6,795 nt of DNA from a plasmid, in NCBI RefSeq assembly GCF_053078305.1, contig NZ_CP166876.1; one strand, 5' to 3'. The notes below the pieces were generated by a model. It did no database searches, was not told the origin of the DNA, and saw only the letters and a program-made list of their open reading frames with translations. Both the position numbers and the translations under genes were made by a program. Shown here piece by piece: positions 1 through 6,795 of this stretch (position 1 is its first letter; each line of letters starts with the position of its first letter).

Positions 1-915
1 ATGAGCGCCGCGCTTCAATACTTCGAAGAAAATTTACCTCATCGTCCCTATCACACGGATGATCTCGCTTTCGGCCTTCGCATCTCCGGCAAAGGGCGCG
101 CTCTTCTTGCGCGCTACATCCAGCAGAACCAGCCACATGCGCAGTTCTGGCTGGTTTTTGACATTGACCGCGAGGGGGCTGCGATTGACTGGAGCGACCG
201 GAACGCTCCCGCGCCGAACATCACCGTAAAAAATCCTGTGAACGGTCATGCTCACCTGCTCTACGCGCTCAATATCGCCGTGAGAACCGCGCCGGACAGC
301 TCGGTTAAGGCGCTGAAATACGCCGCTGCGATTGAACGTTCGCTGTGTGAGAAACTTTGTGCTGATGTGAACTACAGCGGACTGATTTGCAAAAACCCGT
401 TCCACCTGGAATGGCAGGTGATGGAGTGGCGAGAGGAAGCCTATACCCTCGATGAACTGGCTGATTATCTCGATTTGAGTGCCTCAGCGCGCCGTAGCAT
501 CGATAAACATTACGGGATGGGGCGAAACTGCCACCTGTTCGAAATGACGCGCAAATGGGCTTACAGGGCGATTCGTCAGGGCTGGCCAGCATTCTCACAG
601 TGGCTTGATGCTGTGATTCAGCGTGTCGAAATGTACAACGCATCGCTTCCCGTTCCGCTTTCTCAGGCTGAATGTCGGGCTATTGGCAAGAGTATTGCGA
701 AATACACGCACAGGAACTTCACGCCGGAAACTTTCGCACAGTATGTGGCTGATACGCACACGCCAGAAATTCAGGCTACACGCGGTCGCAAGGGCGGTTC
801 TAAGTCTAAGCGCGGCACAGTAGCTACATCAGCACGCACGCTGAAACCTTGGGAGAAATTAGGGATCAGTCGCGCCTGGTATTACCAACTGAAAAAACGA
901 GGTCTCGTAGAGTAG
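1..915 (+). CDS. rep: ColE2-type plasmid replication initiator Rep (plasmid-specific primase)
   Basis: 304-aa ORF starting at window position 1. The N-terminus (MSAALQYFEENLPHRPY...QQNQPHAQFWLVFDIDREGAA...NITVKNPVNGHAHLLYAL) matches what I remember of ColE2/ColE3 Rep proteins, and its size is typical of them. A ColE2-like origin lies directly 3' of the stop codon, as in that family. Confidence 0.88.
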   Translation: MSAALQYFEENLPHRPYHTDDLAFGLRISGKGRALLARYIQQNQPHAQFWLVFDIDREGAAIDWSDRNAPAPNITVKNPVNGHAHLLYALNIAVRTAPDSSVKALKYAAAIERSLCEKLCADVNYSGLICKNPFHLEWQVMEWREEAYTLDELADYLDLSASARRSIDKHYGMGRNCHLFEMTRKWAYRAIRQGWPAFSQWLDAVIQRVEMYNASLPVPLSQAECRAIGKSIAKYTHRNFTPETFAQYVADTHTPEIQATRGRKGGSKSKRGTVATSARTLKPWEKLGISRAWYYQLKKRGLVE

Positions 916-1584: not shown

Positions 1585-3804
1585 ATGGCGATTTATCATC
1601 TCAGCATGAAAATCATTTCGCGAAAAAACGGCTACAGTGCCGTTGCTTCTGCTGCCTACCGTTCCGGCTCTGTCATACCCGATGACCGTACCGGATTAAC
1701 CCACGATTACACCCGTAAACGCGGCGTTGATGATGCGGTCATTCTCACCCCTGCGAATGCACCGTCCTGGTGTGGTGACCGTTCCGTTCTCTGGAATGCG
1801 GTCGAGAAAGCCGAACAGCGCCGGAACTCCCAGCTGGCAAGGGAGATTGAACTCGCCATTCCCCGTGAGATTTCCCGCGAGGCCGCACGGGAGACCGTTC
1901 TCGCTTTTGTCCGGGAAAACTTTGTCAGTCGGGGCATGATTGCCGATGTGGCGTTCCATCACATGGACCGGACCAATCCCCATGCGCACATCATGCTGAC
2001 CACGAGAGCTGTCGGGGAAACGGGATTCGCAGGAAAGGTCAGGGACTGGAACGACCGGGCACTCGCCGAGACGTGGCGCGCATCATGGGCTGACCATGCG
2101 AATAGAGCGCTTGCGAACGCCGGCTACCAGGAAGAGATAGACCATCGTTCATACGAGCGTCAGGGACTGGAGAAAGCGCCGGGCCTTCACCTCGGAAAGG
2201 CTGCCTGTGCGATGGAAAAACGGGGAATGGAAACAGAACGCGGTGAGCAGAACCGTCTGATTAACAGCCTTAACCTGGAAATACAGGTTTCCCGCACGCA
2301 GCTTGCTCTCAGGACGGTTCAGGAAGCGCAGCGTAAGCGGGAACTCAGCGATGCTGCACGTCGTGCAGCGGAAGCCCTTAACCTGACCATTCCCGCTGCG
2401 AATGCCTCAGCGGATACCCTGCGGGAATTCATTGCCACGCTGCCGCAGGAATGCGGGAACGCGTGGGAGATGACCCCGGAGTTCCTGGCGATGAGCGGGA
2501 AGGTGAACGACATCGAACGTGAGGGGAATGCGCTGCTGAAAGAGCAGGCCATTCTCGAAAAGGAGATGACCGGACTCAAAAAAGCACGCCCTGTCGCGTC
2601 CCTTCTGTCAGAGATTCCCCTGATGACATGGGCTGAACCGGAATACCGCAAAAGACAACTCCGTTTCTGGAAACTCGGGAAACAGATTGAATCTCTTCGC
2701 CGCACCTACAGGGCCGTGAAAGAACGGGACATTCCCGCCCGTCGTCAGGCCTTTGAAACGCAGTGGAATACGTGGATTGCGCCGGGAATGGCAGAGCTGA
2801 AAGAAAAACTGTCAGCACGGGAAGCGGAGCGGCGCAGGGAGGAAGCCGAAGCGGAAGCGCGCCGGAAGGAACAGGAGCATGAGGCGCGGCTGAAACGTCA
2901 TGATAACCACCGTCTGAGCCGTGAAACGGCATTAGTCGGGGTTATTACGGAGCTGGGGCGTGCCAGAGAGCCGGGAACGGGCAGGATAACCCGCTACATG
3001 ATGCTGAGTAACAGGGCCGGAGAATTCACGGTATGGGGTGATGAGCTGGCGCATTACCCCCGGAGTGTTCATGACCCGGTGAATGTTTATCTGTCGCCTG
3101 GCGGGGCTGTGATGGTCACGGATATACACGCAGGGCGGCCTGAATCTCATGAGACAATGGCGCGGCCTGAGCGTGTGAGAATGTATTCCGGTGCGACGGT
3201 CCGGCATGTACTGGAACAGATGCGCCAGGGGTGGCCCTCTTACGGTTTTCCGGCGCTGCCGCATCACTGGCCGGATAATTTTTATTTCAGCAACGACCGC
3301 AGGCCCGTAGCCTCTCCGCTACCGTCAGCGCACCGGGTGGATATCACCGCTGATGCGGCACCGGAACAACTCATGCCTGTTGTATTTTCGAGAGAGGGAA
3401 ACAGCAGGACGCTGAATCTGTTGTTGTGCAAAGGGCCGGAGGAAATGCTTGTCGGGTTTGTTCGCCGGGAAGGAGGGTTTTGCCCCGTTCTTGTGCTTCC
3501 GTCGCCGGATTACAGTCATCTGATGGTCAGCACCATCACGGAGAACGGGGTATGCCTGGCAGGTTACGGAGAAGCTATAAACCATGATGAGGATACTCCG
3601 TACCCACCGGAACCGCACCTGATGCAGTTCCGGCTCAAAGGCCATCATGACAGGCTTTTGGCTGCTGTCCACAAACCGGAAGAGATGCCGGATTATCTCT
3701 TCCGTCAACTCGGTTTTAATCAGACCTGGCATGAGTGGAAGCGGGACGAACAGCACAGGCAACAACAACGCCGCCCCGGGCACTTCCGGGGCATGAGTAT
3801 GTGA
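1585..3804 (+). CDS. mobA: Mobilisation relaxase, MobA/MobL family (MOBQ-like), with long C-terminal extension
   Basis: The N-terminus MAIYHLSMKIISRKNGYSAVASAAYRSG is the conserved MobA/MobL start, with a tyrosine at residue 25 (codon 1657-1659), the same position as the catalytic Tyr25 of RSF1010 MobA. A histidine-triad motif HHMDRTNPHAHIM sits around 1957-1995. The start is set at the in-frame ATG at 1585; the six-frame ORF begins at 1498 but that upstream stretch overlaps the oriT and lacks the family N-terminus. About 440 residues follow the relaxase domain. Confidence 0.88.
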   Translation: MAIYHLSMKIISRKNGYSAVASAAYRSGSVIPDDRTGLTHDYTRKRGVDDAVILTPANAPSWCGDRSVLWNAVEKAEQRRNSQLAREIELAIPREISREAARETVLAFVRENFVSRGMIADVAFHHMDRTNPHAHIMLTTRAVGETGFAGKVRDWNDRALAETWRASWADHANRALANAGYQEEIDHRSYERQGLEKAPGLHLGKAACAMEKRGMETERGEQNRLINSLNLEIQVSRTQLALRTVQEAQRKRELSDAARRAAEALNLTIPAANASADTLREFIATLPQECGNAWEMTPEFLAMSGKVNDIEREGNALLKEQAILEKEMTGLKKARPVASLLSEIPLMTWAEPEYRKRQLRFWKLGKQIESLRRTYRAVKERDIPARRQAFETQWNTWIAPGMAELKEKLSAREAERRREEAEAEARRKEQEHEARLKRHDNHRLSRETALVGVITELGRAREPGTGRITRYMMLSNRAGEFTVWGDELAHYPRSVHDPVNVYLSPGGAVMVTDIHAGRPESHETMARPERVRMYSGATVRHVLEQMRQGWPSYGFPALPHHWPDNFYFSNDRRPVASPLPSAHRVDITADAAPEQLMPVVFSREGNSRTLNLLLCKGPEEMLVGFVRREGGFCPVLVLPSPDYSHLMVSTITENGVCLAGYGEAINHDEDTPYPPEPHLMQFRLKGHHDRLLAAVHKPEEMPDYLFRQLGFNQTWHEWKRDEQHRQQQRRPGHFRGMSM

Positions 3805-4036: not shown

Positions 4037-5707
4037 ATGAGCGGTGGCGATGGACGCGGCCATAACACGGGCGCGCATAGCACAAGTGGTAACATTAATG
4101 GTGGCCCGACCGGGCTTGGTGTAGGTGGTGGTGCTTCTGATGGCTCCGGATGGAGTTCGGAAAATAACCCGTGGGGTGGTGGTTCCGGTAGCGGCATTCA
4201 CTGGGGTGGTGGTTCCGGTCATGGTAATGGCGGGGGGAATGGTAATTCCGGTGGTGGTTCGGGAACAGGCGGTAATCTGTCAGCAGTAGCTGCGCCAGTG
4301 GCATTTGGTTTTCCGGCACTTTCCACTCCAGGAGCTGGCGGTCTGGCGGTCAGTATTTCAGCGGGAGCATTATCGGCAGCTATTGCTGATATTATGGCTG
4401 CCCTGAAAGGACCGTTTAAATTTGGTCTTTGGGGGGTGGCTTTATATGGTGTATTGCCATCACAAATAGCGAAAGATGACCCCAATATGATGTCAAAGAT
4501 TGTGACGTCATTACCCGCAGATGATATTACTGAATCACCTGTCAGTTCATTACCTCTCGATAAGGCAACAGTAAACGTAAATGTTCGTGTTGTTGATGAT
4601 GTAAAAGACGAACGACAGAATATTTCGGTTGTTTCAGGTGTTCCGATGAGTGTTCCGGTGGTTGATGCAAAACCTACCGAACGTCCAGGTGTTTTTACGG
4701 CATCAATTCCAGGTGCACCTGTTCTGAATATTTCAGTTAATAACAGTACGCCAGCAGTACAGACATTAAGCCCAGGTGTTACAAATAATACTGATAAGGA
4801 TGTTCGCCCGGCAGGATTTACTCAGGGGGGTAATACCAGGGATGCAGTTATTCGATTCCCGAAGGACAGCGGTCATAATGCCGTATATGTTTCAGTGAGT
4901 GATGTTCTTAGCCCTGACCAGGTAAAACAACGTCAGGATGAAGAAAATCGCCGTCAGCAGGAATGGGATGCTACGCATCCGGTTGAAGCGGCTGAGCGAA
5001 ATTATGAACGCGCGCGTGCAGAGCTGAATCAGGCAAATGAAGATGTTGCCAGAAATCAGGAGCGACAGGCTAAAGCTGTTCAGGTTTATAATTCGCGTAA
5101 AAGCGAACTTGATGCAGCGAATAAAACTCTTGCTGATGCAATAGCTGAAATAAAACAATTTGAACGATTTGCACATGACCCAATGGCTGGCGGTCACAGA
5201 ATGTGGCAAATGGCCGGGCTTAAAGCTCAGCGGGCGCAGACGGATGTAAATAATAAGCAGGCTGCATTTGATGCTGCTGCAAAAGAGAAGGCAGATGCTG
5301 ATGCTGCATTAAGTACTGCGATGGAAAGCAGGAAGAAGAAAGAGGATAATAAAAGAGATGCTGAAGGCAAACTAAATGATGAGTTAGCAAAAAATAAAGG
5401 AAAGATACCAGGTCTAAAAATAGATCAGAAAATTAGGGGACAAATGCCAGAAAGAGGATGGACAGAGGATGATATCAAAAATACCGTATCTAACGGTGCA
5501 ACTGGTACATCTTTTGATAAGCGTAGTCCGAAGAAAACACCTCCAGACTATTTAGGTCGAAATGATCCAGCAACAGTGTATGGTTCTCCTGGTAAATATG
5601 TTGTTGTCAATGATCGTACTGGTGAGGTTACTCAGATTAGTGATAAGACAGATCCGGGTTGGGTGGACGATTCGAGAATTCAATGGGGAAATAAAAATGA
5701 CCAATAA
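4037..5707 (+). CDS. cea: E-group colicin (BtuB/Tol-dependent); C-terminal cytotoxic domain most consistent with E5-type anticodon tRNase
   Basis: 556-aa ORF with an AGAGGG ribosome-binding site upstream. The glycine-rich N-terminal translocation domain carries the TolB box DGSGW at residues 35-39 (nt 4139-4153), as in colicins E2/E3/E9. The central region is the long coiled-coil receptor-binding domain typical of E colicins. The C-terminal ~105 residues (KIPGLKIDQKIRGQMPERGW...WGNKNDQ) have no HNH motif and no histidine, which argues against the E2/E7/E8/E9 DNases; I do not recognise it as the E3 rRNase either, and it fits my recollection of the histidine-free E5 tRNase domain. It is preceded by the SOS operator and followed by immunity and lysis genes. 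Confidence 0.93.
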   Translation: MSGGDGRGHNTGAHSTSGNINGGPTGLGVGGGASDGSGWSSENNPWGGGSGSGIHWGGGSGHGNGGGNGNSGGGSGTGGNLSAVAAPVAFGFPALSTPGAGGLAVSISAGALSAAIADIMAALKGPFKFGLWGVALYGVLPSQIAKDDPNMMSKIVTSLPADDITESPVSSLPLDKATVNVNVRVVDDVKDERQNISVVSGVPMSVPVVDAKPTERPGVFTASIPGAPVLNISVNNSTPAVQTLSPGVTNNTDKDVRPAGFTQGGNTRDAVIRFPKDSGHNAVYVSVSDVLSPDQVKQRQDEENRRQQEWDATHPVEAAERNYERARAELNQANEDVARNQERQAKAVQVYNSRKSELDAANKTLADAIAEIKQFERFAHDPMAGGHRMWQMAGLKAQRAQTDVNNKQAAFDAAAKEKADADAALSTAMESRKKKEDNKRDAEGKLNDELAKNKGKIPGLKIDQKIRGQMPERGWTEDDIKNTVSNGATGTSFDKRSPKKTPPDYLGRNDPATVYGSPGKYVVVNDRTGEVTQISDKTDPGWVDDSRIQWGNKNDQ

Positions 5708-6026
5708 ATTATTTGAACATACGGTGTTATATGATAGTGGTGATGCCTTTTTTGAATTAAAAGGAAATGCTTCTATGAAGTTATCACCAAAAGCTGCAAT
5801 AGAAGTTTGTAATGAAGCAGCGAAAAAAGGCTTATGGATTTTGGGCATTGATGGTGGGCATTGGCTGAATCCTGGATTCAGGATAGATAGTTCAGCATCA
5901 TGGACATATGATATGCCGGAGGAATACAAATCAAAAATCCCTGAAAATAATAGATTGGCTATTGAAAATATTAAAGATGATATTGAGAATGGATACACTG
6001 CTTTCATTATCACGTTAAAGATGTAA
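5697..6026 (+). CDS. Colicin immunity protein (cognate inhibitor of the C-terminal nuclease domain)
   Basis: 109-aa ORF (MTNKLFEHTVLYDSGDAFFELKGN...) whose ATG at 5697 overlaps the colicin stop codon (5705-5707), the typical translationally coupled position of nuclease-colicin immunity genes. The six-frame ORF begins at 5562, but that extension lies wholly inside the colicin reading frame and is rejected. The gene is AT-rich like the cytotoxic domain. Confidence 0.85.
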   Translation: MTNKLFEHTVLYDSGDAFFELKGNASMKLSPKAAIEVCNEAAKKGLWILGIDGGHWLNPGFRIDSSASWTYDMPEEYKSKIPENNRLAIENIKDDIENGYTAFIITLKM

Positions 6027-6123: not shown

Positions 6124-6267
6124 ATGAAAAAAATAACATGGATTATTTTATTGCTTCTTGCAGCCATTATTCTTGCTGCATGTCAGGCAAACTATATCCG
6201 CGATGTTCAGGGCGGGACTGTATCCCCGTCATCCTCAGCTGAACTGACCGGATTAGCAACGCAGTAA
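6124..6267 (+). CDS. Colicin lysis / release lipoprotein (bacteriocin release protein)
   Basis: Translation by hand gives the 47-aa protein [47 protein letters not shown], with a lipoprotein signal peptide and lipobox LAAC. It is nearly identical to the E-group colicin lysis proteins as I recall them. It is absent from the ORF track because it is short. A ribosome-binding site 'aaggaa' lies upstream. Confidence 0.9.
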
Positions 6268-6294: not shown

Positions 6295-6327
6295 GCGTGT
6301 CAGGCTGATTCTGACGCGCTTTTTTTT
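6295..6327 (+). terminator. Rho-independent terminator of the colicin operon
   Basis: A 9-bp stem 'gcgtgtcag' (6295-6303) pairs with 'ctgacgcgc' (6311-6319), with one G-U pair and a 7-nt loop, and is followed by a run of 8 T (6320-6327). It lies 28 bp after the lysis gene stop. Confidence 0.8.
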
Positions 6328-6463
6328 GAAGTGTCACAAAAATTCCATGTGGGAGATGGGATCTAAAATCCCCGTGCAGAACTTTCCATCCAGGGGGAGA
6401 AAACTTGTCGTTTTGAGCCGTTCGGTGTTCAGAACGCACGAAACCGATCGTGCATCGCTTTCG

Positions 6464-6477
6464 TGCATAGTTATGCA
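6464..6477. promoter_or_regulatory. ARG-box-like palindrome (candidate ArgR accessory site of the cer-like locus)
   Basis: Palindrome 'tgcatagttatgca' resembles the ARG box half-sites (TGAAT/ATTCA with a symmetric A-to-C change) and is centred about 120 bp upstream of the XerCD core, close to the spacing in ColE1 cer. A direct repeat 'tcgtgcat' (6448-6455 and 6461-6468) flanks it. Confidence 0.35.
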
Positions 6478-6578
6478 ACGCGCTAAAAACGATTCTGACG
6501 CATTTTTTATGTTTACCCTGGTGTTTCCTTGTCTTTTTGTTTTTTTTGCGTCAGAAAGCGATTGAGGGTGTTTTAAGG

Positions 6579-6606
6579 GGTGCGTACAACGGGAGTTATG
6601 GTAAAT
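6579..6606 (+). other. XerC/XerD site-specific recombination core (cer-like multimer resolution site)
   Basis: The sequence 'ggtgcgtacaa cgggag ttatggtaaat' has a XerC arm identical to ColE1 cer (GGTGCGTACAA), a 6-bp central region (cer has 8 bp) and a XerD arm TTATGGTAAAT identical to cer. About 180 bp of upstream accessory sequence (about 6400-6578) includes the ARG-box-like palindrome. Confidence 0.8.
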
Positions 6607-6619
6607 GGATCGGGTTTTG

Positions 6620-6795
6620 GGGAATAATCGACAGGGTTTGCCGTTGGGTGTAGTGTAAGCGACTGAAAAACAAACGCCCCGTAAATCGTGCTCTCACCGC
6701 CAAGATTGATCACGAAATTACAGGGCGCCGGGTTCCGCGTCTCCCGATGGGAAAGCGCGGTTAGTTAAACTGTGTACCGAGAGGAATCGTAACAC
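6620..6795 (+). promoter_or_regulatory. Presumed rep leader / copy-number control region (rep promoter, antisense-RNA target), continuing into rep at position 1 if the molecule is circular
   Basis: A ribosome-binding site 'gagagg' (6778-6783) sits about 12 nt before the window end, positioned for the rep ATG at 1 across the circular junction. An imperfect stem-loop 'ccgcgtctccc gat gggaaagcgcgg' is at about 6757-6780. A candidate sigma70 promoter has -35 'tcgaca' (6628-6633) and -10 'tagtgt' (6651-6656). ColE2-type replicons control Rep translation with an antisense RNA against this leader; the exact RNA ends cannot be set from sequence. Confidence 0.35.

Follow-up and report, generated by a model that had tools for sequence, protein, structure and literature searches.

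The window analysed here, a stretch of 6,795 nucleotides, ends in the leader of a rep gene whose coding sequence begins at position 1. The question raised by this locus is whether an antisense RNA against the rep mRNA is transcribed from the leader, starting at a promoter whose two halves lie at opposite ends of the stretch.

Plasmid and circular context

The 6795-bp window is a complete small circular colicin E5 plasmid with a ColE2-family replicon, and it is near-identical or related to pColE8, pColE3-CA38 and ColE9-J. The assignment to the ColE2 family follows from the domain matches of Rep listed below and from a leader close to that of pColE3-CA38. The rep coding sequence of this colicin E5 plasmid is of the ColE8/ColE9-like type and not of the ColE2/E3 type. 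The genes considered were:

1-915, plus strand: rep, 304 aa, ColE2-family primase-type initiator and target of the control; matches PF03090 Replicase (7e-44) and PriCT_1
1585-3804: MobA/MobL relaxase
4037-5707: colicin with a Colicin_E5 tRNase domain
5697-6026: ImmE5 (Pfam PF11480, 6e-26)
6124-6267: lysis protein

The ImmE5 gene (5697-6026) is labelled 'colicin transporter' in NZ_AP019765.1, which looks like a mis-annotation.

The window was linearised exactly at the rep ATG, and the leader (6620-6795) and rep (1-915) are contiguous in vivo. A query composed of positions 6501-6795 followed by 1-300 gave one unbroken match, at 99.8% identity, within the circular 6795-bp plasmid NZ_AP019765.1 (pO111-110512_4). 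The same junction query was covered to at least 80% by 392 plasmid records whose numbering begins elsewhere. The circular context on which the earlier note had made its promoter depend is therefore present, the sequence across the junction being continuous in NZ_AP019765.1 and in these 392 records.

Leaders compared

The comparison included 20 leaders, namely the window and 19 more, and three types were distinguished. The leaders of pColE8, pColE3-CA38, pO26-S4, pSSE and pEc631_4 share the type of the window. The second type is shorter and about 85% identical, and it is found in ColE9-J and Col156-type plasmids. The third, distant type belongs to small plasmids of Citrobacter, Enterobacter, Salmonella, Serratia and E. 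coli, including pMUT2 and H10407 p58, and in this type BLAST aligns the rep coding sequence only. The small plasmids of the distant branch are mostly NadS- or toxin-antitoxin-linked. Near relatives are too alike to count as independent evidence of conservation, and independence comes from the three leader types only.

Antisense promoter across the junction

The earlier note had proposed that a minus-strand promoter is formed when the ends of the window are joined. Its elements were found exactly as it had described them, with a 16-bp spacer made up of 6792-6795 and 1-12:

13-18, minus strand: -35 element TTGAAG of the RNA I promoter, within rep codons 5-6 (Leu-Gln)
6792-6795, minus strand: left part of the promoter spacer, with the extended -10 TG (complement of 6793-6794); the remainder of the spacer, 1-12, includes the rep ATG
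6786-6791, minus strand: -10 element TACGAT of the RNA I promoter, between the rep Shine-Dalgarno (SD) sequence and the ATG

The circular scan also detected a TGn preceding the -10 element, which makes it an extended -10 (TGtTACGAT); this had been missed before. Every leader has cATGTGn directly before the -10 element. The hexamers themselves match the consensus at 8 of 12 positions (four in each), which is not above chance, and 56 minus-strand sites in the plasmid reach at least 8/12 with spacers of 15-19 bp. A built-in consensus scan of 6300-6795, which has a 9/12 threshold, accepts loops of up to 8 nt and is blind across the junction, reported neither promoter nor terminator. Our own circular promoter scan and folding were used in its place. 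When both strands of the circularised plasmid were searched, as had been suggested, the junction site was found, and the composite motif TTGnnn-N13-TGn-TAnnAT occurred once, against 0.05 occurrences expected from shuffles, the motif having been chosen post hoc.

Because the hexamer match by itself is weak and common, the support for the promoter is comparative. A minus-strand promoter-like site was present at the same aligned position relative to the ATG in all 20 leaders of the three diverged types, and it was the sole such site within -220 to +120 in 18 of them. The layout was constant in all leaders (TTGnnn, 16 bp, TGn, TAnnAT) and the letters of the hexamers varied. At the same position, the -35 element was TTGTCT, TTGTTT or TTGTGT in the distant leaders, and the -10 element was TAGGAT in the ColE9-J type and TAATAT or TAGTAT in the distant type. 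The 5' coding sequence of rep is heavily diverged from that of pColE3-CA38, and the -35 element forms a conserved island amid the diverged codons: bases 13-18 are unchanged in pColE3-CA38 and in ColE2-type rep genes, though positions 11, 12, 19 and 20 differ. This conservation may come partly from protein constraint, as the element is coding sequence and its Leu-Gln is kept in ColE3 Rep.

These results indicate with high confidence that the promoter across the junction is genuine and that the antisense RNA I is transcribed from it. If the junction hexamers were instead a chance match, RNA I would still exist but its true promoter would lie elsewhere, for example deeper in rep, and its 5' end would be different. 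The 8/12 hexamers, the 56 comparable minus-strand sites and a score under the 9/12 threshold of the tool agree with such a chance match. However, no other minus-strand promoter-like site was detected in +1 to +120 or in the leader of any of the 20 plasmids, one TTG/16/TGn/TAnnAT layout is kept at one position in three leader types with differing hexamers, and the 114-nt transcript predicted from this site matches the reported size of RNA I. A promoter elsewhere is therefore unlikely.

Predicted transcript and terminator

Transcription from the junction promoter would give an RNA with the following parts:

6666-6779, minus strand: RNA I, predicted, about 114 nt, with the start taken from the -10 position and the 3' end in the U-tract
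6761-6779, minus strand: 5' tail of RNA I, 19 nt, CGGUACACAGUUUAACUAA, predicted to be single-stranded (unpaired in the MFE and centroid structures)
6735-6760, minus strand: stem-loop I, CCGCG-CUUUCCCAUCGGGAGA-CGCGG, predicted by folding
6675-6727, minus strand: stem-loop II, a 53-nt imperfect hairpin that doubles as the terminator stem, from folding and compensatory changes
6698-6703, minus strand: loop motif 5'-UUGGCG-3' within AUCUUGGCGGU, from sequence and fold
6666-6674, minus strand: U-tract UUUGUUUUU of the intrinsic terminator (AAAAACAAA on the plus strand), directly 3' of the hairpin

Folding of the minus strand between 6780 and 6662 gave four parts, which are the 5' tail, stem-loop I, the 53-nt hairpin and the U-tract. 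The MFE of the RNA I fold was -44.1 kcal/mol (z = -2.78). Judging from the -10 position, the 5' end would be at 6777-6779, and the 3' end would fall within the U-tract at 6666-6670. The terminator lies about 113 nt downstream of the antisense promoter.

The earlier note had found no convincing terminator for the antisense transcript, but the hairpin at 6675-6727 followed by the U-tract at 6666-6674 is a good one. The built-in scan overlooked it because loops longer than 8 nt are not accepted. For the small minus-strand RNA of about 100 nt that had been placed at about 6680-6780, the span predicted here is instead about 6666-6779, with a length of about 114 nt. A leader stem-loop had also been placed at about 6757-6780. 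No minus-strand hairpin was found at those coordinates and this candidate was rejected; the stem-loop crossed by the transcript is the one at 6735-6760 (CCGCG...CGCGG). A possible SD-containing hairpin of the mRNA lies at about 6771-6795. For pColE3-CA38 and pColE8 the predicted RNA I is likewise 114 nt long; the ColE9-J type gives 79-82 nt, and most leaders of the distant type give 74-76 nt.

The long hairpin followed by a minus-strand U-tract is kept in all three leader types, and an A-run just upstream of the hairpin on the plus strand is likewise present in all of them. Five of the 10 RNAalifold pairs in the terminator hairpin were compensatory and both helices were recovered, the underlying MAFFT alignment being imperfect. 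In this alignment the hairpin slipped register between leader types, and per-sequence folds and strand comparison were used. The per-sequence folds gave UCGUG/CACGA, UCAUGUU/GACAUGA, AAUUACG/CGUGAUU and UUCAUAUU/GAUAUGAA as variants of the upper helix, and the hairpin base pair varied (C-G, A-U or G-U). In 16 of 16 distinct variants the hairpin was more stable on the minus strand than on the plus strand (mean, -24.8 versus -20.3 kcal/mol), because of G.U pairs.

A hairpin and an A-run could also serve the plus strand only, as a stabilising or translational element at the 5' end of the rep mRNA, with no functional antisense RNA. A DNA palindrome folds on both strands, the plus strand forms the hairpin too, and covariation by itself assigns no strand. 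Three features nevertheless point to the minus strand, namely the U-tract, which is found on this strand only, the G.U pairs, which favour its hairpin in every variant, and the conserved promoter at the right distance. In addition, an antisense RNA is established for this family (PMC6856555; PMC5304414), and a target stem-loop in the mRNA belongs to the antisense mechanism and is no alternative to it. A purely plus-strand function is thus highly improbable. There is next to no chance that the promoter halves are joined only by an artefact of assembly or linearisation and that the window is no true circle, since this reading has nothing more than the linear presentation of the window in its favour and is refuted by the unbroken junction query in many independently assembled circular plasmids with other start positions.

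The rep mRNA as the probable target

The preferred reading, an antisense RNA I ending at the hairpin, was related to two features of the rep mRNA:

6628-6656, plus strand: candidate rep mRNA promoter TCGACA-17-TAGTGT, predicted start at about 6662-6664
6781-6785, plus strand: rep Shine-Dalgarno sequence GAGGA, 2 nt past the predicted end of RNA I complementarity

All 20 leaders have a site of the form nnGACA-16/18-TAnnnT, placed 18-23 nt upstream of the base of the hairpin. From the position of the sense promoter in the window, the rep mRNA would therefore start at about 6663 and RNA I would be complementary to nearly the whole 5' untranslated region (UTR). The predicted convergent promoters, both conserved in position, bracket 6663-6779, and the strand-biased, covarying terminator hairpin lies between them. 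The predicted arrangement on opposite strands, with a minus-strand promoter and terminator and an upstream sense promoter, is likewise conserved in position.

In the proposed mechanism, antisense transcription would start at about 6779, run leftward and end at the hairpin (6675-6727) and UUUGUUUUU. The product, with its free 5' tail and stem-loops I and II, would be fully complementary to nearly the entire rep 5' UTR and stop 2 nt short of the SD. The UUGGCG loop at 6698-6703 is, by analogy, the probable site of first contact (kissing), at which it would meet its complementary loop in the rep mRNA; extension of the duplex would be aided by the unpaired 5' tail. Loop-loop contact would lead to duplex extension and this to a block of Rep translation. 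Inhibition could be steric, because the duplex would end 2 nt from the SD, within the ribosome footprint, or it could act through a structural change of the leader. Because the dose of RNA I would follow copy number, Rep synthesis and initiation would be under negative feedback, more copies giving more RNA I, less Rep primase and fewer initiations.

In the predicted fold of the rep mRNA, the 3' arm of stem-loop I (6753-6761, AGCGCGGUU) pairs with rep codons 2-4 (positions 4-12, AGCGCCGCGCU). This pairing encloses the SD and the AUG and would form in place of stem-loop I. The fold with this pairing was barely better than shuffles (z = -1.9). Occlusion of the ribosome binding site by this pairing is not claimed, given that z value and the lack of comparative support.

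Probable identity with RNA I of ColE2-type plasmids

The minus strand at 6666-6779 is very probably the gene of RNA I, the antisense RNA in the IncA copy-number control of a ColE2/ColE3-type replicon. The proposal in the earlier note that the rep leader is under ColE2-type antisense copy control was borne out by the ColE2-family Rep, the promoter conserved in 20 of 20 leaders, the covarying terminator and the literature. RNA I, the incA product, is said to have been characterised by the Itoh laboratory on ColE3-CA38 and ColE2-P9 (reportedly by Yasueda in 1989 and 1994 and by Hiraga in 1994). Its size was reportedly put at about 115 nt by Takechi et al. in 1994 and by Sugiyama and Itoh in 1993, and the predicted 114 nt fits this value. 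A nine-nucleotide loop sequence common to most IncA types was reportedly described by Hiraga in 1994. The long hairpin of the window, ColE3, ColE8, ColE9-J and related leaders has UCUUGGCGG in its loop; two leaders of the ColE9-J/Col156 type (L002 and L006) have UCUUGCCGG at this place.

The comparison with a known RNA I sequence that had been proposed was made against the leader of pColE3-CA38 (NZ_KM287568.1), which was the homology reference instead of ColE2-P9. Positions 6637-6795 differ from it at three positions (6741, 6784 and 6792) and are identical in pColE8. Only 6741 lies within the predicted RNA, where a U.G pair in stem-loop I becomes a U-A pair. Both pO26-S4 and pSSE, which have a ColE3-type Rep N-terminus and a 297-aa rep product, show the same three differences across 6637-6795. 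The predicted RNA resembles RNA I of ColE2-P9 and ColE3-CA38: it would have the same orientation, lie antisense to the rep 5' UTR, form two stem-loops, carry the UCUUGGCGG loop and be about 114 nt long. The host here differs in being a colicin E5 plasmid with a ColE8/ColE9-like rep, a mosaic of a kind that Hiraga et al. reportedly described in 1994; to judge from the sequence, the RNA would be functionally no different. The feature is already known, having been published in 1989-1994, and its detection here is a correct rediscovery with nothing new.

In ColE2-like plasmids, rep is controlled post-transcriptionally, as RNAI binds the 5' UTR of the rep mRNA and prevents its translation (PMC6856555; PMC5304414). 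RNase E degrades ColE2 RNAI, according to the title of Nishio & Itoh 2009 as cited in PMC10939160. A cmscan of the whole window on both strands with the 4227 models of Rfam 15 gave nothing at E<=1.

Comparison with other antisense systems

The RNA I of ColE9-J/Col156-type plasmids has the same promoter, U-tract and long hairpin with a UUGGCG (or UUGCCG) loop. In contrast to that of the window, it is without the segment of about 33 nt that carries stem-loop I, is predicted to be 79-82 nt long and would have a different small 5' stem-loop.

CopA of R1 and the Inc RNA of IncI-alpha and IncB plasmids are constitutive, short, cis-encoded antisense RNAs against the rep leader, which inhibit initiator synthesis post-transcriptionally. 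UUGGCG/YUNR recognition loops are known in the antisense RNAs of IncI, IncB and R1 plasmids. The predicted RNA I shares with CopA and the IncI-alpha and IncB RNAs a stem-loop with a 5'-UUGGCG-3'/YUNR loop and the rep leader as target. However, its sequence is unrelated (the Rfam CopA model gave no match at E<=1), the leader of the window shows no sign of leader-peptide coupling, and Rep is a primase here, not an iteron- or oriR-binding initiator.

The RNA I of ColE1 has the name in common, is also an antisense copy-control RNA of about 110 nt, and likewise involves RNase E in its turnover (PMC10939160). Unlike the present RNA, it targets the RNA II primer precursor and not an mRNA. The two are homologous neither in sequence nor in structure, and a match to the Rfam RNAI model was not obtained.

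Variation of the control region within the family

The segment of about 33 nt with stem-loop I (6737-6769; columns ~201-233 of alignment A1) was present in the window, ColE3, ColE8 and the ColE2 type, and it was absent from the ColE9-J/Col156-type leaders (L002-L007). Outside this segment the leaders are near-identical, upstream in the promoter, the A-run and the hairpin base and downstream in the SD, the ATG and the antisense promoter. This pattern suggests modular exchange of the IncA region.

In the distant leaders (L009-L016, e.g. 310-330 of L010, L015 of pMUT2 and L013 of H10407 p58), the loop reads CUUGGCGG in the rep sense and CCGCCAAG in the antisense. This is the reverse of positions 6697-6705 of the window, where UCUUGGCGG is on the antisense strand. 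The A-run, the polarity of the terminator and the position of the antisense promoter are unchanged in the distant type. By sequence, the UUGGCG loop motif has apparently swapped strands in this leader type.

The distant leader L010 has an ATG, aligned with the rep ATG of the window, that opens an ORF of 16 codons (MNRARQQPAISAGHIA*; e.g. 400-450 of L010). All of L009-L016 have an ATG at the aligned position, which is 43 nt ahead of the TTG annotated as the start of rep. The stop of the 16-codon ORF in L010 overlaps the annotated rep TTG start in another frame, and the window is without such an ORF. By analogy with R1 or IncI replicons, the ORF could encode a leader peptide with translational coupling.

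Put together, these observations would make the control region a set of swappable modules, in which a cassette of about 33 nt takes the RNA from about 80 to about 114 nt, the distant branch carries UUGGCG on the rep mRNA, and a leader ORF ends at the rep TTG. This combined reading is tentative and rather doubtful. If the loop swap and the leader ORF are true and unreported, one replicon family would have seen both a U-turn loop change strands and its control change over to leader-peptide coupling.

A remnant of the replicon is found in a 133-kb IncF plasmid (NZ_LR130565.1, positions 1501-1876), in two pieces that are 90% and 97% identical to the window. Many large IncF plasmids have this remnant, in a region that also has a colicin E1/microcin immunity gene. 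The stretch from window position 6691 through 117 is deleted from it, and half of the hairpin, stem-loop I, the SD, the ATG and the antisense promoter are gone. The remnant is the relic of a dead replicon, and MOB-suite still types it as rep_cluster_2131.

Distribution, annotation and meaning

Of the 5426 complete E. coli genomes, 50 carry the RNA I region, in every case on a plasmid. Among the RefSeq E. coli plasmid records listed, there was no annotated feature under this region, and records linearised at the rep ATG split the RNA I promoter across their ends. An experimentally established RNA gene is thus without an Rfam 15 model, a gap in annotation that would be filled by a covariance model of the three leader types. 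The finding of RNA I raises no new biological question. It would explain how the copy number of the colicin E5 plasmid is set, and IncA incompatibility is expected with plasmids that have ColE2-, ColE3- and ColE8-type leaders.
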